DNA of 64,000 bases from Escherichia coli 042. Lineage in GTDB: Bacteria > Pseudomonadota > Gammaproteobacteria > Enterobacterales > Enterobacteriaceae. Location of the stretch: assembly GCF_000027125.1 (NCBI RefSeq), contig NC_017626.1; one strand, 5' to 3'. Position numbers and translations under genes: made by a program. Positions 3,211 through 63,442 of this stretch are shown here, piece after piece. The notes beneath the pieces were generated by a model. That model saw only the letters and a list, made by a program, of their open reading frames with translations, searched no databases and was not told the origin of the DNA. Positions within the stretch are counted from its first letter, which is position 1. Each line of letters begins with the position of its first letter.

Positions 3211-3501
3211 CCTGGCCTGAAGCATTAACAACGGTAGGAATTGCGATGGCGGTGGCGCTGGTGGTGTATTCGATTTGCCGCTGGGGATAAAAACGGTTTG
3301 CGGGAAAAGGAGAGTTAAGTAGAATTGCAGCGGGTGCTTGAGGCTATCTGTCTCAGGCATGAACACCAAAAGGCAGATAGAGAAAAGCCCCAGTTAACAT
3401 TACGCGTCCGGCAAGACGCTTAACATTAATCTGAGGCCATATCTATGCTCTACACACGTAGGTTAGCCTCTTACGTGCCGAAAGGCAAGGAGAAGCAGGC
3501 T

Positions 3502-3657
3502 ATGAAGCAGCAAAAGGCGATGCTAATCGCCCTGATCGTCATCTGTTTAACCGTCATTGTGACGGCACTGGTAACGAGGAAAGACCTCTGCGAGGTACGA
3601 ATCCGAACCGGCCAGACGGAGGTCGCTGTCTTCACAGCTTACGAACCTGAGGAGTAA
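3502..3657 (+). CDS. hokD: Hok/Gef-family type I toxin (HokD/RelF-like)
   Basis: 51-aa product MKQQKAMLIALIVICLTVIVTALVTRKDLCEVRIRTGQTEVAVFTAYEPEE matches my recollection of the Hok family (TM helix, conserved Cys, C-terminal AYE); in-frame upstream extension from 3445; hairpins downstream. Confidence 0.8.
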   Translation: MKQQKAMLIALIVICLTVIVTALVTRKDLCEVRIRTGQTEVAVFTAYEPEE

Positions 3658-10146: not shown

Positions 10147-10222
10147 GGCCCTTTAGCTCAGTGGTGAGAGCGAGCGACTCATAATCGCCAGGTCGCTGGT
10201 TCAAATCCAGCAAGGGCCACCA
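10147..10222 (+). tRNA. ileZ: tRNA with CAT anticodon, Ile2 (lysidine)-type or Met
   Basis: 76-nt cloverleaf: acceptor ggccctt/aagggcc, T-arm gctgg-ttcaaat-ccagc, anticodon loop ctCATaa, 3' CCA; close to recalled E. coli tRNA-Ile2. Confidence 0.85.
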
Positions 10223-10229
10223 TCACATA

Positions 10230-10306
10230 CCGCCATTAGCTCATCAGGAAAGAGCGCCAGCCTTCGAAGCTGGTTGCGCGGAGTTCGGGTCCCCGAAGGC
10301 GGTCCA
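10230..10306 (+). tRNA. tRNA-Arg (anticodon TCG as read)
   Basis: 77-nt cloverleaf: anticodon stem ccagc/gctgg with loop ctTCGaa, 3' CCA; one mismatch each in acceptor and T stems. Confidence 0.6.
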
Positions 10307-10319
10307 TTATCTGTATCCT

Positions 10320-10396
10320 GCGTTGTTAGCTCAGCCGGACAGAGCAATTGCCTTCTAAGCAATCGGTCACTGGTTCGAATCCAGTACAACGCGCCA
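10320..10396 (+). tRNA. tRNA-Arg (anticodon TCT)
   Basis: 77-nt cloverleaf: acceptor gcgttgt/acaacgc, T-arm actgg-ttcgaat-ccagt, anticodon loop ctTCTaa, 3' CCA. Confidence 0.85.
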
Positions 10397-10440: not shown

Positions 10441-10656
10441 TCTCACAATTCAGGCGGTTGACTGTTGTCTGGTTTGCGGGGAGTTTGTTAAAAGAAACTG
10501 GCATGGTGAATCCCCCTGTGCGGAGGGGCAATCAGCGAGTAGGTATATGGGATAATCGCGGATTCAGGTGCTGGTACTGAATTCACCGGGAGGCACCCGG
10601 CACCATGCAATGGCACATAGCGCCACTCTCCAGCCCCTCTCCGGAGGGGCTTTTCT
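10441..10656 (+). repeat. Structured repeat unit 1 (sRNA-like: promoter-like box, hairpins, terminator)
   Basis: Shares with unit 2 the blocks tcacaattcag, ttgac, ttgttaaaa, gcatggtgaatccccctg.gcggagggg, gtataat/ggataat, caccgggaggcacccggcaccatg and terminator gcccctctccggaggggc+T-run. Confidence 0.55.
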
Positions 10657-10908
10657 GTGCCGGATACATCACAGTTTCTGGAACCTTAGGTACTACAGTA
10701 TCAGTCAGGGTGCTATATTTTCAGATGTGATGAAAGCCTGTCAGCAGGCAGGGCGTATCGGAAATGACCCAGTAGAGAAAACGTTGACTCAGATACCGGT
10801 GCTGAGTTACCGGGAAACCGGCATCACATGACCGCTATCCTTCCAGGCCCATCCGCTCCGGTGGGCCTTTTTACTGCAGAAAACAGGTTCCCCGTTAAAT
10901 GCTATGTT

Positions 10909-11141
10909 GCTCACAATTCAGTAAGTTGACAGTTGCCTGTCAGACTGGGCATTTGTTAAAAAAATTTCGCATGGTGAATCCCCCTGAGCGGAGGGGCGAC
11001 TGGTGACGGTATAATCTCTGATTATCAAAACGAGAATGACGCGGGTTTAGTGGCACCGGACTGAACTCACCGGGAGGCACCCGGCACCATGTGCATGATG
11101 ATACAGATACGCGGCTTTAGCCCCTCTCCGGAGGGGCTTTC
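10909..11141 (+). repeat. Structured repeat unit 2 (sRNA-like)
   Basis: Second diverged copy of the same ~220-bp unit, with a perfect TATAAT at 11010-11015. Confidence 0.55.
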
Positions 11142-11371
11142 TTATGGACAAAAAAAGCCCGCGCTGGGAGACGCGGGCGGCAAGGAATAAACAATAAAAC
11201 GTGAAGTAATATTTCAGCTGGCGAATAATACCCCATAGTAATCACTCTGCGCAACTGCGCGGTCTTTTTCGAATTGCGGGCTGTAGTCTCCCTTCTGCCA
11301 TTGTCCTGTAACTTCCGGACTTCAGCCTGCTCCTTATCTGACTCACAACATTATCCCGCCCGGGAGGATTC

Positions 11372-13225
11372 ATGGCATTTAAACACTATGACGTGGTCAG
11401 GGCGGCATCGCCGTCAGACCTTGCGAAACGACTGACACAAAAACTGAAGGAGGGCTGGCAGCCGTTTGGTAGTCCGGTGGCCATAACCCCTTATACCCTG
11501 ATGCAGGCGATTGCAGCAGAAGGTGATGTGGTCGTCAGTGGTGCAACTGAGCCGGAGTGGTACTACGTCATCGTACTGGCCGGGCAATCCAATGCCATGG
11601 CTTACGGTGAAGGGCTTCCGCTTCCGGATTCATACGATGCGCCCCATCCGCGCATTAAGCAACTGGCCCGTCGTAACACAGTGACTCCCGGTGGTGAAGT
11701 ATGCGTATTTAACGACATCATTCCTGCTGACCATTGTCTGCATGATGTTCAGGATATGAGTACGATTAACCATCCCCGGGCTGACCTGAGCAAAGGGCAG
11801 TACGGCTGTGTCGGACAGGGCTTACATATTGCCAAAAAACTGCTTCCGTATATCCCTAATAATGCGGGGATCCTGCTGGTACCATGCTGTCGTGGTGGTT
11901 CGGCATTCACCCAGGGCACGGAGGGGACATTCAGCGAGTCCACGGGAGCCAGTCAGGATTCGGCTCGCTGGGGAGTGGGTAAGCCGTTATATCAGGATCT
12001 GCTTTTCCGCACGAAGGCAGCATTGCAGAAAAACCCGAAAAACGTTTTGCTGGCGATATGCTGGATGCAGGGGGAATTCGATATGACGAATGCCAGTTAC
12101 GCCCAGCAGCCAGCAGCATTTCTTGCAATGGTACAGCAGTTCCGTGCTGACCTTGCCGGGCTGGCAGCGCAGTGTCACGGTGGAAGTCCGGCATCAGTCC
12201 CCTGGATTTGTGGCGACACGACATACGCGTGGAAACAAGAACACGGTACGCAATATGAAGTGGTATATGGTGCATATAAAGGTAAAGAATCCCAGCAGAT
12301 TTATTTTGTTCCCTTTATGACCGATGGTAGCGGAGTTAATACACCGACAAACAACCCGTCAGAAGATCCTGATATTGCCGGGTCTGGTTATTACGGTTCG
12401 GCATCCCGAACGAACAAAAACTGGGTATCATCAAATCGCCCGACGCATTTCAGCTCATGGGCGCGTCGTGGCATTATTCCCGATCGTATGGCAACTGCTA
12501 TTCTGAACGTAGCCGGTCGCACCTTAGCCTTCATTAGTGGTAAGGCACCGGAAATCAAACCCTCGCCCGGCGGCGACACGCCATTGGGGCCGTCTGAAGA
12601 TGCATCCATACGCACAATCTCCCTGTTGCCGACAGCCGGAGACGCTGCTGCGCAGGGCTGGAGCATTAAGAATGGCGGAATTCAGTTGTCAGATGGTGTA
12701 TTTAAGATCACCAAGCAGAGCAATAAAGCCTGGTCCCTGACGCGCCCGGTGGATGACGCAGTCTCCCTGCTGACACGGGGTGGCAGACTGAGCTGTAAGT
12801 TTCGACTGTCAGGCGCACTGACCAACAATCAGTTCGGTCTGGGAATTTATCTGTATACCGATGTAGCGTTACCTGACGTCGTGGCGATGACCGGGACTGG
12901 TAACCCGTTCCTGATGTCGTTCTTCACCCAGACCACAGACGGCAAACTGAATCTGATGCATCACAAGAAAGCAGGAAACACAAAGTTGGGCGAGTTCGGG
13001 AATTACAGTAACGACTGGCAGACGCTGGAGCTGGTGTTCACCGCCGGCAGTGCCACGGTTACTCCGAAACTGAATGGAGTGGCTGGCCCGGCATTCCAGG
13101 TCATAAAAGACAGTCTGACACTGGGGCTGAATGCGCTGACGCTGACGGATATTACCAAAAATGCAGCGTATGGCGTTGAGATAGAAAGTCTGGTGCTGGA
13201 GATAAATGCACCGGCATCATCATAA
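11372..13225 (+). CDS. Phage NanS-p-like sialate O-acetylesterase (DUF1737 + SGNH hydrolase)
   Basis: 617 aa; N-terminal MAFKHYDVV... and GQSNAMAYGEG esterase motif; occupies the post-tRNA position before the lysis genes. Confidence 0.75.
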   Translation: MAFKHYDVVRAASPSDLAKRLTQKLKEGWQPFGSPVAITPYTLMQAIAAEGDVVVSGATEPEWYYVIVLAGQSNAMAYGEGLPLPDSYDAPHPRIKQLARRNTVTPGGEVCVFNDIIPADHCLHDVQDMSTINHPRADLSKGQYGCVGQGLHIAKKLLPYIPNNAGILLVPCCRGGSAFTQGTEGTFSESTGASQDSARWGVGKPLYQDLLFRTKAALQKNPKNVLLAICWMQGEFDMTNASYAQQPAAFLAMVQQFRADLAGLAAQCHGGSPASVPWICGDTTYAWKQEHGTQYEVVYGAYKGKESQQIYFVPFMTDGSGVNTPTNNPSEDPDIAGSGYYGSASRTNKNWVSSNRPTHFSSWARRGIIPDRMATAILNVAGRTLAFISGKAPEIKPSPGGDTPLGPSEDASIRTISLLPTAGDAAAQGWSIKNGGIQLSDGVFKITKQSNKAWSLTRPVDDAVSLLTRGGRLSCKFRLSGALTNNQFGLGIYLYTDVALPDVVAMTGTGNPFLMSFFTQTTDGKLNLMHHKKAGNTKLGEFGNYSNDWQTLELVFTAGSATVTPKLNGVAGPAFQVIKDSLTLGLNALTLTDITKNAAYGVEIESLVLEINAPASS

Positions 13226-13375
13226 AAAGTGAGCCAGCCAAATGGAAGGTATCGTTAAACTCACCGGTAGTGTCAGTGGGTCGTCTGAGATGCCTGCATG
13301 AGTTATCAGAGCCATCAGTACTTAACTGGTGGCTTTTTTTATTGTTGTCAGCTTCCGGATAACGGGAGACGGGGT

Positions 13376-13591
13376 ATGTACCAGATGGAAAAAATCACAA
13401 CAGGTGTGTCATACACCACGTCAGCGGTGGGAACGGGCTACTGGTTCCTGCAGTTGCTGGACAGGGTTTCCCCGTCTCAGTGGGCGGCAATAGGCGTGCT
13501 GGGGAGTCTGCTGTTTGGGCTGCTGACATATCTGACTAACCTGTATTTCAAAATCAGAGAGGACCGTCGTAAGGCTGCACGGGGAGAGTAA
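13376..13591 (+). CDS. Holin, S21-type pinholin with dual start
   Basis: 71 aa [10 protein letters not shown]...[24 protein letters not shown]...[13 protein letters not shown] matches recalled phage 21 S; two in-frame Met (M1, M4) as in antiholin/holin pairs. Confidence 0.85.
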
Positions 13592-13595
13592 TTCA

Positions 13596-13911
13596 ATGAC
13601 TCAAAACTATGAACTGATTGTGAAAGGGATCCGCAATTTTGAGAATAAAGTTACGGTAACTTTAGCGTTACGGGACAAAAAAACGCTTTGACGGTGAAAT
13701 TTTTGACCTGGACATCTCGCTGGACCGTGTTGAAGGTGCCGCGCTGGAGTTTTATGAGGCAGCAGCCAGAAGGAGCATCAGACAGGTCTTCCTGGATGTT
13801 GCTGCCGGGTTATGTGAAGGGGACGAGCTGTTGCCAGAAACGCGCCCCTGTTCAGAGGCGCGGTATACCATAAAAATTAACAGTTCTGATAACTCGATTA
13901 CGGGTTGTTAG
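13596..13911 (+). pseudogene. ydfR-like small gene split by a frameshift at an A7 run
   Basis: ATG 13596 reads 31 codons to TGA at 13689-13691; the +1 frame continues open from 13684 to TAG 13909-13911 with no start codon; junction is the A7 tract 13677-13683. Confidence 0.5.
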
Positions 13912-13966
13912 CTTTTTGCAGTTGGCTTTCCAGTATCTTTCATTGGTAGCATCCTGATAAATATCC

Positions 13967-14500
13967 ATGAGCGCAAAAATCAAATACGGCCTGTCAGCTG
14001 CTGTTCTGGCGCTGATTGCTGCAGGCGCGTCTGCTCCTCAGATACTTGACCAGTTTCTGGACGAAAAAGAGGGTAACCACACAACGGCATACCGCGATGG
14101 TTCCGGCATCTGGACCATCTGTCGGGGGGCCACGATGGTGGATGGAAAACCCGTTTTTCCCGGTATGAAACTGTCGAAGGAAAAATGCGACCAGGTCAAC
14201 GCCATTGAGCGTGATAAGGCGCTGGCATGGGTGGAGAAAAACATCAAAGTGCCATTGAGCGAACCCCAGAAAGCGGGGATCGCGTCATTCTGTCCGTACA
14301 ACATTGGTCCCGGTAAGTGTTTCCCGTCGACGTTTTATAAACGAATTAATGCAGGTGATCGCAGGGGAGCGTGTGAGGCGATTCGCTGGTGGATTAAGGA
14401 CGGTGGCAGAGACTGCCGTATTCGTTCAAACAACTGCTACGGTCAGGTATCCCGTCGTGACCAGGAGAGCGCGCTGGCGTGCTGGGGTATCGACAGATAA
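13967..14500 (+). CDS. SAR endolysin (phage lysozyme, R21-like)
   Basis: 177 aa; N-terminal signal-anchor LSAAVLALIAAGASAP followed by lysozyme fold, T4-lysozyme-like (GH24) family as recalled for R21. Confidence 0.85.
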   Translation: MSAKIKYGLSAAVLALIAAGASAPQILDQFLDEKEGNHTTAYRDGSGIWTICRGATMVDGKPVFPGMKLSKEKCDQVNAIERDKALAWVEKNIKVPLSEPQKAGIASFCPYNIGPGKCFPSTFYKRINAGDRRGACEAIRWWIKDGGRDCRIRSNNCYGQVSRRDQESALACWGIDR

Positions 14501-14659
14501 GCAGAATATTTTGCTGAAAAATAAGGCATGGCCACGCGGGCGGATAACATGAAATCCTGCGAAGTGGCGAAACGTAAGTGAATAAAAGTAAAAACCCCGT
14601 TTGTTGGCACCAAGCGGGGTTTTGTGTTTCCTGACTCCGGAAAAGTCAAAGGAGAAAGT

Positions 14660-14797
14660 GTGTTTGATTTTAGCAAACTGATTCGGGAGATTCGAGTGAT
14701 GGCTGAAAAATTATCCACCTGGAAGTTCATTCTTATCTGGCTGGTGTTTGTGATTATGGCCTCCGGTTATTTCATCGGTCAGATACGCTGGTGGTGA
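14660..14797 (+). CDS. Possible small membrane protein between R and Rz
   Basis: GTG 14660 (or ATG 14699) after GGAG; hydrophobic [20 protein letters not shown]; stop overlaps Rz start. Confidence 0.25.
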
Positions 14798-14798
14798 A

Positions 14799-15263
14799 AT
14801 GAACCGCGTACTGTGCGTGGTCATCATTGCCCTGCTGGTGGCCTGTGGTGCGCTTAGTCTGGGGCTGAATCATTACCGTGATAACGCCATTACCTACAAA
14901 GCCCAGCGCGACAAAAATGTCAGAGAACTGAAGCTGGCGAACGCGGCAATTACTGACATGCAGATGCGTCAGCGTGATGTTGCTGCGCTCGATGCAAAAT
15001 ACACGAAGGAGTTAGCTGATGCGAAAGCTGAAAATGATGCTCTGCGTGATGATGTTGCCGCTGGTCGTCGTCGGTTGCACATCAAAGCAGTCTGTCAGTC
15101 AGTGCGTGAAGCCACCACCGCCTCCGGCGTGGATAATGCAGCCTCCCCCCGACTGGCAGACACCGCTGAACGGGATTATTTCACCCTCAGAGCGCGACTG
15201 ATAATAATGCAAAAACAACTTGAAGGGGCACAGCTATACATTCGAGAGCAATGCCTCAGATAA
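14799..15263 (+). CDS. Rz: Rz i-spanin
   Basis: 154 aa, near-identical over most of its length to recalled lambda Rz ([17 protein letters not shown]...). Confidence 0.9.
15019..15201 (+). CDS. Rz1: Rz1 o-spanin lipoprotein, embedded in Rz in +1 frame
   Basis: 60 aa with lipobox VVGC and proline-rich [20 protein letters not shown] as in lambda Rz1. Confidence 0.85.
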
Positions 15264-15570
15264 AAACCGGCCAAGGATAATCCGCTGAAGATTCGCCGGT
15301 GGCTAAAGTGTGCCAAGAGTTCAATTTACGCAATTACTCCTGTCGATGCTATGCACCGTCTTTGTGAAGTCAATGGATACCTGATTTATTTCTGTGCGCT
15401 GTATCGTCGCTGTACTCTTGCATTAATTATGACTGTAGCCTGACGGGGAACTCCTTCTGCACAAGTGTGGGGGAATAATCAAAAACGATGCACACCGGGG
15501 TTACCGGGTACACATATTTCATCATGCCAGCGAGTCCGGTTCTGGTACGGAAGAAACCGGACGTTATGAT

Positions 15571-15996
15571 TTAGTGCGGAAATATTTGTGTAGTGTTCTG
15601 AATGTTCTCAGTAAAGAGTAATGAATTATCAAAGGTATAGTAATATCTTTTGTTTTCGTGGATATTTGTAATCCATCTGAAAACCCCTGCTGTAGCAAGA
15701 TTTTTCCTGTATTCGTAAAATGATAACTCTCCTGATTTGAATCCTTTTAAGGTGGCTTCTATAAGGCATTTATTTTTTGAAAATCTTACATTTACAACCT
15801 TACCCTGTCCTTTTATTAAAACCGTATTATCGTTTTCAAGAACAAGATGAATATTCTCTGTGGCTAAATAGTAAATGTAATGTGAGACATTGTGACGTTT
15901 TAGTTCAGAATAAAACCAGTGATAGTTTAAATTATTTCGCACTTTATCGAATATTTGTTTAAAAATGGCAACCTGAGCCATTGTAGTACCTTCCAT
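15571..15996 (-). CDS. Hypothetical cargo protein, possibly DUF1398/YbcV-like
   Basis: 141-aa AT-rich ORF on the minus strand between Rz and cos, the position of bor in lambda. Confidence 0.45.
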
Positions 15997-16038
15997 GTGA
16001 TATGAGGGGGCGTAGTCTGCACGATTATCTAAATTGCT

Positions 16039-16272
16039 TCAATCTGGTCTGACCTGTTTTCTGAGCAATTCAGTAATGTCACTCTTTTCTTTGTTTGCTT
16101 CAGGCGAAACTCTTTTTTCTGAGCACAGTCTCCGGCGGCAGGCTTCAATGACCCAGGCTGAGAAATTCCCGGACCCTTTTTGAACAAGAGCGATGTTAAT
16201 TTGTTCAATCATTTGGTTAGGAAAGCGGATGTTGCGGGTTGTTGTTCTGCGGGTTCTGTTCTTCGTTGACAT
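16039..16272 (-). CDS. Ribbon-helix-helix (Arc/MetJ-like) DNA-binding protein
   Basis: 77 aa; basic N-terminus then NIRFPNQMIEQINIALVQKG...FSAWVIEACRRRL resembles the RHH beta-strand plus two helices. Confidence 0.5.
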   Translation of the reverse strand: MSTKNRTRRTTTRNIRFPNQMIEQINIALVQKGSGNFSAWVIEACRRRLCSEKRVSPEANKEKSDITELLRKQVRPD

Positions 16273-16471
16273 GAGGTTGCCCTGTATTCAGTGTCGCTGA
16301 TTTGTATTGTCTGAAGTTGTTTTTACGTTAGGTTGATGCAGATCAATTAATACGATACCTGCGTCATAATTGATTATTTGACGTGGTTTGATGGCCTCCA
16401 CGCACGTTGTGATATGTAGATGATAATCATTATCGCTTTACGGGTCCTTTCCGGTGATCCGACAGGTTACG

Positions 16472-16483
16472 GGGCGGCGACCT
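16472..16483 (+). other. cos: cos site (cosN 12-nt cohesive end) with cosB downstream
   Basis: cgggtcctttccggtgatccgacaggttacg / gggcggcgacct cgcgg...tatttatgaaaatttt matches the lambda genome ends as I recall them. Confidence 0.8.
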
Positions 16484-16659
16484 CGCGGTTTTTCACTATT
16501 TATGAAAATTTTTCAGGGAAAATCGTGTCGGTACTTCTCGAATATAACTTTTTGTTTTTTTTAATATTACATCCGTAAAGGTCCGACATGAAAGTGTCCG
16601 AAAATGACTTTTTCTGGCGTTTTCATGTCGGGCCTTGTATTTGATAATGGGTTGTTTTC

Positions 16660-39916: not shown

Positions 39917-40500
39917 TGGTATTCAGAATGAGTGAACAACCACGGACCATAACAATTTATAATCTGCTGGCCGGAACTAATGAATTTATTGGTGAAGGTG
40001 ATGCATATATTCCGCCTCATACAGGTCTGCCAGCAAACAGTACCGATATTGCACCGCCAGATATTCCGGCAGGCTTCGTGGCTGTTTTCAACAGTGATGA
40101 GGCATCGTGGCATCTCGTTGAAGATCATCGGGGTAAAACGGTTTATGACGTGGCTTCCGGCGACGCGTTATTTATTTCTGAACTCGGTCCGTTACCGGAA
40201 AATGTTACCTGGTTATCGCCGGAAGGGGAGTTTCAGAAGTGGAACGGCACAGCCTGGGTGAAGGATACGGAAGCAGAAAAACTGTTCCGGATCCGGGAGG
40301 CGGAAGAAACAAAAAACAACCTGATGCAGGTAGCCAGTGAGCATATTGCGCCGCTTCAGGATGCTGCAGATCTGGAAATTGCAACGGAGGAAGAAACCTC
40401 ATTGCTGGAAGCCTGGAAAAAGTATCGGGTGTTGCTGAACCGTGTTGATACATCAACTGCACCTGATATTGAGTGGCCTACGAACCCTGTCAGGGAGTAA
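39916..40500 (+). CDS. tfa: Tail fibre assembly protein
   Basis: 194 aa directly after stf with ATGA overlap. Confidence 0.8.
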
Positions 40501-50562: not shown

Positions 50563-50589
50563 AATTTTGTTCAAAAAAAGCCCGCTCAT
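50563..50589 (-). terminator. trp attenuator terminator
   Basis: agcccgcctaatgagcgggc plus U-run on the minus strand, between trpL and trpE. Confidence 0.85.
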
Positions 50590-50641
50590 TAGGCGGGCTG
50601 GGTATCTGATTGCTTTACGCATGGTGAATACACTGCCCGTT

Positions 50642-50686
50642 TCAGGAAGTGCGCCACCAACCTTTCAGTACGAAAATTGCTTTCAT
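50642..50686 (-). CDS. trpL: trp operon leader peptide
   Basis: Reverse complement reads atgaaagcaattttcgtactgaaaggttggtggcgcacttcctga = [14 protein letters not shown] with tandem Trp codons. Confidence 0.95.
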
Positions 50687-63070: not shown

Positions 63071-63442
63071 TTATCATCATTCTTATTACCCATTTTTAAT
63101 CAATTAAAGGGCTTTTAATACACCGCAGCAATAACAGGTTGAGTTATCTCAACACAAAGTAATAACCGTTAAGGGTGTAGCCTATGATCAACACAAATAT
63201 GAAATATTGGTCCTGGATGGGCGCATTTTCTCTGTCGATGCTCTTCTGGGCCGAACTCCTCTGGATCATTACTCACTGATCCCTGACCCCGCTGCGGCGG
63301 GGTTTTCATTTGCTTTGCCACAAGGTTTCTCCTCTTTTATCAATTTGGGTTGTTATCAAATCGTTACGCGATGTTTGTGTTATCTTTAATATTCACCCTG
63401 AAGAGAATCAGGGCTTCGCAACCCTGTCATTAAGGAGGAGCT

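Follow-up and report, generated by a model that had tools for sequence, protein, structure and literature searches.

Several described phage and prophage systems resemble the locus reported here. In phage P2, lysA sits between the endolysin and spanin genes; HK97 gp15 blocks DNA entry of other phages; and classical morons, which the lysogen expresses, have an upstream promoter and a downstream terminator. Type I toxins are marked by small size, a transmembrane segment, and a polar or aromatic-charged C-terminal tail (Fozo et al., PMC2887945), and hokW-sokW, a type I locus of the Shiga toxin 2 (Stx2) prophage Sp5, assists lysis and phage release (PMC8621323). The present analysis concerns positions 14590-14797 of a 64,000-nucleotide (nt) stretch of Escherichia coli 042 contig NC_017626.1 (the window; Table 1), a segment located between the endolysin gene R and the i-spanin gene Rz of a lambdoid prophage. 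Judging from its sequence, we give roughly even chances to the reading that this segment is a type I toxin-antitoxin (TA)-like cassette, mobile and complete in itself, composed of a hairpin (HP1), a probable antisense RNA, and a gene for a 45-amino acid (aa) membrane protein. A preliminary description of the same DNA had given the order as endolysin, terminator, small hydrophobic open reading frame (ORF), and Rz, which is correct. The insertion is optional, since in the K-12 prophage Qin the 177-aa endolysin gene rrrQ (the same length as R) overlaps the spanin gene rzpQ, without an insert.

The small ORF is a genuine gene under purifying selection. It runs from a GTG at 14660, or from an internal ATG at 14699, to the TGA at 14795-14797, giving 45 or 32 aa; the preliminary description had these coordinates and the hydrophobic character right, and in RefSeq the 45-aa form is entered as a hypothetical protein (WP_000459345.1). 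The protein matches PHROG 6632, a family of unknown function, over its full length (E 1.2e-29; residues 1-45 of a 45-position profile), and distant members match the same profile at E 1e-9 to 1e-14. An exhaustive hidden Markov model search yielded a compact family of 40 clusters, with homologues in E. albertii, E. fergusonii, Salmonella, Citrobacter, Yersinia, Edwardsiella, Izhakiella, Sodalis, Providencia, an Azoarcus metagenome-assembled genome, and metagenomes. All 10 sequences compared are exactly 45 codons long, with no indels. Among ten sequences covering Escherichia, Salmonella, Citrobacter, Yersinia, Edwardsiella, Izhakiella, and Sodalis, the pairwise ratio of non-synonymous to synonymous substitution rates (dN/dS) was 0.05-0.29 wherever dS was at least 0.4; dS was often saturated. 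Alignment of homologous cassettes had been proposed as the check on this ORF, with lack of conservation counting against it; the ORF is conserved.

The preliminary description had also allowed that the ORF might be a remnant. On that account it would be a fortuitous frame in what decay has left of a bigger insert at the R-Rz position, such as the antirepressor gene of some Stx phages, and it is true that the 82-90 nt between the R stop codon and the hairpin have no assigned function and that longer or shorter ORFs are called at the site in some annotations. Decay is at odds with low dN/dS at saturated dS, with the lack of indels in ten lineages, and with conserved module boundaries. The 72-aa ORF of Stx2_EH2201 makes the same point: a 1-nt indel, by which the window differs from H-19B, interrupts its N-terminal extension and leaves the 45-aa frame untouched. 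With the ORF intact, of fixed length, and under purifying selection in distant hosts, we reject the remnant as scarcely credible. The 57-aa (from GTG 14624) and 72-aa versions, both of which read through the hairpin, were set aside as ORF-calling artefacts.

The product is a predicted tail-anchored inner-membrane protein. A charged N-terminal helix is followed by a transmembrane segment at residues 23-39, where the best 17-residue Kyte-Doolittle window reaches 2.5, and by a C-terminal RWW (GQIRWW). Conserved residues are S5 K6, E10, R12, M14, and W21 K/R22 F23, then the single transmembrane segment; the tail often reads RWW or KWW. Thirteen of 19 family members start with a codon other than ATG. 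Sequence searches with the small protein found no relative in Pfam, NCBIfam, PADLOC, or PDB, and no holin match in Pfam or PHROG that would place it in a holin or antiholin family. A full-text literature search found no publication on the small gene or RNA, and neither appears in the supplementary data of Tree et al. 2014 or of the Sakai small-gene study.

HP1, just 5' of the gene, is a conserved structure. An intrinsic terminator had been proposed at 14594-14629, and the sequence, the terminator scan, and covariation bear out its hairpin and T-run, at 14591-14629. The stem comprises 13 pairs (14591-14623), with the core CCCCG at 14595-14599 opposite CGGGG at 14615-14619. On the plus strand its minimum free energy is -18.9 kcal/mol (z = -2.8 versus shuffles) and it is followed by the tail TTTTGTGTTT to 14629 (UUUUGUGUUU as terminator tail); on the minus strand it folds at -15.6 kcal/mol with the tail TTTTTACTTTTAT, read from 14594 down to 14582 (the tail is also given as UUUUUACUUUU and UUUUUACUUUUAU). 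The terminator scan overall returned 4 terminator-like sites against 2.6 expected, so that the single match at HP1 is not significant alone; we accept HP1 because its pairing is conserved and compensatory. Across 16 homologous leaders, 9 of the 13 pairs show two-sided changes, and pairing holds in 90% of cells. None of 500 shuffles had as good a pairing score, no slid register did as well, and RNAalifold supported HP1 only. A GC-rich stem-loop leading directly into a U-run is the pattern of an intrinsic terminator, and HP1 has it; most family members have T-rich tails on both sides of the hairpin, the plus-strand T-run being strong in nearly all of them. HP1 looks like an intrinsic terminator on both strands, as far as prediction goes. 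A second small stem-loop lies between HP1 and the start codon, constant in hairpin position and different in stem sequence from lineage to lineage. On the mRNA, the unpaired probability of the Shine-Dalgarno (SD) sequence was not distinguishable from that of shuffled controls in most lineages, and we do not claim that this second hairpin occludes it.

The first codons of the gene are under a non-coding constraint. Across the 13 sequences that could be aligned without gaps, third-position entropy is zero at codons 3, 4, 5, and 6, where the amino acids themselves vary at codons 3-5: D/N/Y, then F/I/L (TTT/ATT/CTT), then S/I (AGC/ATC). Third-position entropy differs between codons 3-13 and 15-45 (p = 6e-4), and the rare codon CGA occupies position 12 in 12 of the 13 sequences. 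Synonymous sites of conserved C-terminal residues vary freely, as do the third positions of codons 2, 7, and 8; since these last are interleaved with the frozen ones, the segment is not merely young. On the minus strand the sequence of frozen bases is TTTGnTAAnAT, and the variable bases, at -13, -9, and -6, are the uninformative positions of an extended -10 element, TGnTAnnAT. In 13 of the 15 members scored first, the -10 of the best minus-strand promoter ends within a few bases of ORF nt +7. At the expected position, 14 of 19 family members have a -10 score of at least 6.8 and two more score 5.3 (background fraction 0.013), compared with none of 79 long ORFs of the window reaching 6.6 at the equivalent position. 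All three unrelated ORFs carried as cargo behind the same kind of leader (described below) score 6.6-7.2 (TATACT, TGCTAGACT).

A transcript from this site would be a cis-antisense RNA of about 80 nt that lies over the ribosome-binding site and ends at the hairpin, and such an RNA is probable as a prediction. For all seven lineages, folding of the predicted RNA gives a 5' stem-loop and then the terminator, with z from -2.9 to -5.9 (-3.4 in the window). Its 5' stem-loop is the minus-strand form of the second stem-loop noted above, and the sequence of this 5' stem is lineage-specific. Another antisense promoter, listed by the general scan at 14782 to 14753 (CTGACC-18-CATAAT), was dropped, as by inspection of the alignment it is conserved in neither Salmonella nor E. 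fergusonii. Beyond the preliminary description, then, the hairpin and ORF are one mobile unit (see below), the hairpin is two-way, and the 5' end of the ORF holds a conserved antisense promoter signature.

At its 3' end the gene is closely joined to Rz. The preliminary description had the ORF stop codon overlapping the Rz start; the two are in fact separated, the TGA ending at 14797, with the single base A14798 before the Rz ATG at 14799. The WW-stop codons (UGGUGGUGA) are SD-like and lie just 5' of the ATG of the next gene. Among close relatives (the 98%-identical relatives from a scan of IMG/VR), the junction is TGAaATG in 79 of 80, and the order endolysin, ORF, one base, i-spanin holds in 80 of 80. 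The exit of the form WW* plus TGAnATG is also seen in other cargo ORFs. Within the gene, codons 9-10 read xGG GAG in 12 of 13 sequences and M14 is nearly invariant; a 32-aa short form starting at ATG 14699 is possible on this codon pattern, and its SD/ATG region would lie outside the predicted antisense RNA.

We consider another explanation a real possibility though well short of even chances. It holds that there is no antisense RNA; that the hairpin is a plus-strand insulator terminator or a stabilizer of the S-R message; that the late transcript gives rise to an ordinary accessory lysis protein, either antiholin-like or one that pairs with the transmembrane segment of Rz; and that the frozen sites serve plus-strand translation, through unstructured initiation at a weak GTG start and through the internal SD/ATG, which would yield a second product in the manner of dual-start holins. 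The gene order just described, found also in six divergent lineages, fits this account, as do the GGGAG and its 9-nt distance from the ATG of the near-invariant M14, the synonymous preference for xGG GAG, the strong plus-strand T-run in nearly all members, and the P2 lysA gene in the same endolysin-spanin slot. A demand for A/U-rich initiation, however, leaves the invariant third-position C of codon 5 (AGC/ATC) and the rare CGA at codon 12 unexplained. Nor would it lead one to expect that the variable bases coincide exactly with those positions of an opposite-strand extended -10 that carry no information, that unrelated cargo ORFs share the location of the minus-strand -10, or a cassette that also occurs away from lysis genes and together with at least three unrelated holin families.

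The hairpin and the gene move together as one unit. A GC-rich hairpin, preceded by an A-tract and followed by a T-run, lies 23-40 nt 5' of the start codon in 18 of the 19 family members (those with DNA examined), the exception being the GC-rich outlier L117. In Rac-SA53 the nucleotide match spans the hairpin to the stop codon, inside a tail/baseplate gene region; the spacer at 14501-14589 is absent from Rac-SA53 and from E. fergusonii and thus lies outside the mobile unit. The flanking genes, which represent at least four endolysin and two spanin families, encode a PF00959 endolysin and PF03245 spanin in the window, Salmonella, and Providencia; a GH19 endolysin and DUF2514 spanin in E. fergusonii; a GH108 endolysin and DUF2514 spanin in Edwardsiella; and a phrog_873 endolysin and PF03245 spanin in Citrobacter. 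Outside lysis cassettes, the unit follows a gpV-like baseplate gene (Rac-SA53, Yersinia) or a DUF2612 structural gene (Izhakiella), lies between T7-like internal virion genes (Azoarcus), or is found in lambda-like tail operons (L116, L118).

In one case it stands alone, as a tandem duplicate among type II TA genes. In L115 (GCA_900156195.1, 2098-3379) the cassette is located between ParE-type and YafQ/RelB genes and forms a 704-bp tandem duplication. The two copies share 97% identity over the upstream 300 nt and share their C-terminal codons; the N-terminal half of the protein differs, and the minus-strand TATACT is again present in the second copy. About 345 nt 5' of each copy is a promoter-like TTTACA-17-TATCAT, and L115 is the only relative with such a site. 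Another member, L020, adjoins PrlF/YhaV. Such traits, alongside the protein features, are of the kind by which Fozo et al. searched out type I toxins (PMC2887945).

The position between R and Rz is a cargo site for unrelated small membrane-protein ORFs. PhiR5_2 (L013 1583-1911) has the same leader in front of 60-aa and 43-aa membrane ORFs (phrog_1115, phrog_4906), and GER2 (L014 1647-1760) has it in front of a 37-aa ORF ending IRWW* (phrog_4493). In E. fergusonii (L009 3686-3907) a second module lies directly 5' of the one for PHROG 6632. It has a separate hairpin and T-run, an SD sequence, and a 50-aa transmembrane ORF ending KWW* (phrog_12997), followed by TGAtATG; both modules stand in tandem between the GH19 endolysin and DUF2514 spanin genes, and this upstream ORF has no similarity to that of the window. 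The GER2 ORF corresponds to the PhiR5_2 ORF begun at its internal Met13, and a long and a short form may exist in that family as well.

Interchangeable cargos (phrog_1115, 4493, 4906, 12997) behind one leader show the diversity expected of an arms-race gene, and the cassette is mobile and occurs in many contexts. It could be a moron, that is, a gene for lysogenic conversion or superinfection exclusion (for instance a block to DNA entry) for which the lysis cassette is simply a tolerated insertion site. Such a gene should be active in the lysogen, and with no plus-strand promoter and a terminator directly upstream minimal expression would be expected there; the non-ATG start in most members and the lack of a PADLOC match also argue against this explanation, which we hold to be decidedly unlikely.

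Returning to the type I-like reading, the proposed order of events is as follows, bearing in mind that we infer the existence of the antisense RNA, the regulatory logic, the toxicity of the protein, and the role in lysis. It is established that in lambdoid late operons Q modification allows RNA polymerase to pass intrinsic terminators. In the lysogen, stray plus-strand transcription leaking from upstream would halt at the hairpin, and on those transcripts that pass it the antisense RNA would hide the ribosome-binding site. Upon induction, Q-modified polymerase would pass the hairpin, restricting expression to Q antitermination, and the abundant late transcript would outnumber and titrate the antisense RNA, so that the membrane protein could be made. 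Ribosomes terminating at the WW-stop codons may re-initiate on Rz one base further on, and we propose that the insertion consequently does not silence the spanin. The protein would most likely act on the inner membrane late in infection, aiding or timing lysis. For the window copy, such help with lysis or its timing is a plausible guess and the most economical one. The preliminary description had suggested an extra lysis regulator; this is possible, and it is weakened by members in tail/baseplate operons and in a TA island. A more elaborate version would make the locus a widespread, hitherto unrecognized lysis safety catch: a domesticated, Q-gated type I module with 45-aa and 32-aa forms, in which the antisense RNA silences the long form only and the ratio of forms tunes membrane depolarization and hence lysis timing whatever the holin, endolysin, and spanin, the other cargos being alternative clocks. 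We think this version rather unlikely.

Several observations weigh against the type I-like reading as a whole. The -35 of the antisense promoter matches at only 3 of 6 positions, and the site is absent from the output of the general promoter scan. Three to five of the 19 members have no clear -10 where it is expected: L117 is without both -10 and hairpin, in L018 and L020 the -10 is shifted only, and in L017 and L116 it is weak. As in the conventional account, the constraint on the 5' codons could alternatively reflect signals for plus-strand translation. The scan gave no plus-strand promoter-like site at 14500-14660, and between the hairpin and the start codon none was found by eye either. 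A type I toxin mRNA comes from its own promoter, and in the window the gene is instead preceded by a terminator. No known family of type I toxins, holins, or antiholins is homologous to the protein. Finally, members in tail operons count against a function tied to lysis; they indicate a function independent of adjacent lysis genes.

The surroundings are those of a phage-21-type lysis cassette of a lambdoid E. coli prophage, located at 13298-15263 in the window; the annotation of H-19B calls the matching endolysin 'similar to bacteriophage 21 R'. The gap from the R stop to the Rz start is 298 nt and is 94-95% identical in H-19B and many Stx1/Stx2 phages. With a 351-nt query around the gene, 2060 of 5426 complete E. 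coli genomes give a match, and in 870 genomes the match covers at least 80% of the query. The spacer between R and the hairpin, conserved in E. coli and partly in Salmonella, contains a small GGATAACAnGAAATCC inverted repeat. A 95-aa minus-strand ORF at 14443-14730 was dismissed as spurious, with zero family matches in Pfam and PHROG.

Table 1. Coordinates of the small-gene cassette and of the lysis genes around it (window numbering)
Feature	Position	Strand	Evidence or remarks
S21-type pinholin	13376..13591	+	PF04971, E 9e-33
R21-type endolysin, 177 aa	13967..14500	+	PF00959, E 2e-24; phrog_7 endolysin; hydrophobic N-terminus like that of signal-arrest-release (SAR) endolysins (by sequence)
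Spacer, R stop to hairpin	14501..14589	+	Partly conserved in E. coli and Salmonella; absent from E. fergusonii and Rac-SA53 (alignments)
Predicted cis-antisense RNA, ~78-80 nt	14583..14661	-	Predicted start ~14661/14660; would cover GTG and SD; ends with HP1 and U-tail; both ends putative
Hairpin HP1, A-tract 5', T-run 3'	14590..14629	both	Terminator scan, fold, covariation
Second small stem-loop	14627..14655	both	Fold; between HP1 and start codon
Shine-Dalgarno AGGAG for GTG start	14650..14654	+	Sequence; GGAG/GAGG at -9 conserved in homologues
Small gene, 45 aa	14660..14797	+	PHROG 6632; dN/dS 0.05-0.2; family alignment; hydropathy
Predicted extended -10, TGCTAAAAT	14667..14675 (read 14675 to 14667; hexamer 14672 to 14667)	-	Scoring, entropy
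Weak -35 TCGAAT, 17-nt spacer (predicted)	14690..14695	-	Complement of codons I11-R12 (ATT CGA)
Possible internal start: GGGAG (14685-14689), 9 nt, ATG of M14 (14699)	14685..14701	+	Codon pattern
Exit junction: WW-stop codons TGGTGGTGA, SD-like GGAGGTGA, then A, then Rz ATG 14799	14789..14801	+	
Rz i-spanin	14799..15263	+	PF03245, E 1e-52
Rz1 o-spanin, embedded in Rz	15019-15201	+	PF06085, E 5e-20

Between the holin and endolysin genes, a DUF1327 (ydfR-like) gene at 13596-13900 is frameshifted: a 31-aa ORF (13596-13691) is followed by an out-of-frame continuation. The identical sequence is a pseudogene in RefSeq, and the gene is intact (345 nt) in Stx2_EH2201. Downstream of Rz, at 15571-16272 on the minus strand, are genes for 141-aa and 77-aa proteins, whose counterparts in a strain identical over the 351-nt query are annotated as DUF1398 (YdfO-like) and YlcI/YnfO-family genes; this interval between lysis and terminase genes is the usual moron region.

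A search with Rfam at a permissive threshold over 12500-16500 returned a chance-level rimP match alone (E 0.67). The described small RNAs AgvB, AsxR, and the Pas RNAs are not at the R-Rz site; Pas RNAs are located between the sialate esterase and holin genes, and a 2026 preprint places the prophage small RNAs PasA and PasC between the sialate O-acetylesterase and holin genes. In the window, a terminator-like site (hairpin plus T-run) at 13308-13336 on the plus strand falls within 13226-13375, the interval that separates the holin gene from the sialate O-acetylesterase gene (11372-13225). At the gathering threshold, Rfam matches in the window lie at 3332-3507, 10147-10393, 10472-11149, 40259-40457, 50572-50665, and 63111-63313 and comprise a sok antitoxin RNA, three tRNAs, two STnc100, IS009, a trp leader (minus strand), and STnc180. 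From the sok match, this prophage also has a hok/sok locus.

In H-19B-type Stx phages the lysis cassette has been treated as a solved unit of four genes (S, R, Rz, and Rz1); many such cassettes carry a fifth, strongly conserved gene that is usually unannotated or 'hypothetical'. If the antisense RNA is real, the locus would represent a new type I TA-like family that is terminator-gated, has no sense promoter, and is coupled to the spanin, and it would be a concrete case of a potentially toxic membrane protein kept silent in the lysogen and released only under antitermination. Third positions that are frozen while the amino acids vary would make a clean example of a promoter embedded in coding sequence, here a predicted one. 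Lysis timing governs the release of Shiga toxin from Stx phages, and a modulator at the R-Rz position is therefore of practical interest.

How the cassette compares with known systems differs from one to the next. Like lambdoid morons such as HK97 gene 15, it adds a small inner-membrane protein gene, with transcription signals of its own, between normally adjacent genes. It falls outside the moron class of Juhala and Hendrix: its terminator is 5' of the gene, with none after the ORF and no sense promoter seen, and its sole promoter-like element points backwards. P2 lysA (between K and lysB), the Mu releasin gp25, and the antiholins lambda S107 and S21-71 are, like the cassette gene, optional late membrane-protein genes in a lysis cassette, and the cassette gene might, like dual-start holin genes, also yield two products; unlike them, the cassette protein has no homology to LysA, gp25, or antiholins and is much smaller than LysA or gp25. 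Its company of at least three holin families and several endolysin families, together with the non-lysis sites, makes a specific holin or SAR-endolysin partner unlikely. The closest RNA parallels are P22 sar and lambda OOP, short (~70-80 nt), constitutive antisense RNAs that end at an intrinsic terminator; sar overlaps the translation-initiation region of ant and OOP the 3' end of a gene, and the sense transcript outcompetes in one phase of infection (review: PMC12197685). The cassette RNA, by contrast, is predicted, and its target would be a small membrane protein of the late region rather than a regulator of lysis versus lysogeny. From type I systems (the SymE/SymR layout; Hok/Sok, including hokW-sokW), the cassette differs in that its gene is preceded by a terminator, would be read only in the Q-antiterminated late operon, and would be translationally coupled to a spanin. 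It also has no homology, by Pfam, NCBIfam, and PDB, to Hok, Ldr/Fst, Ibs, TisB, ShoB, Zor, DinQ, or SymE, a requirement for membership of those named families and not for the type I class. In its protein the cassette agrees with a type I toxin (<70 aa, a transmembrane segment, a polar or aromatic tail), having 45 aa, one segment of Kyte-Doolittle 2.5, and the aromatic and charged C-terminus GQIRWW. It is likewise prophage-borne, has a predicted antisense RNA of ~80 nt over the SD and start codon with its own terminator, and is found in L115 as tandem, stand-alone copies.

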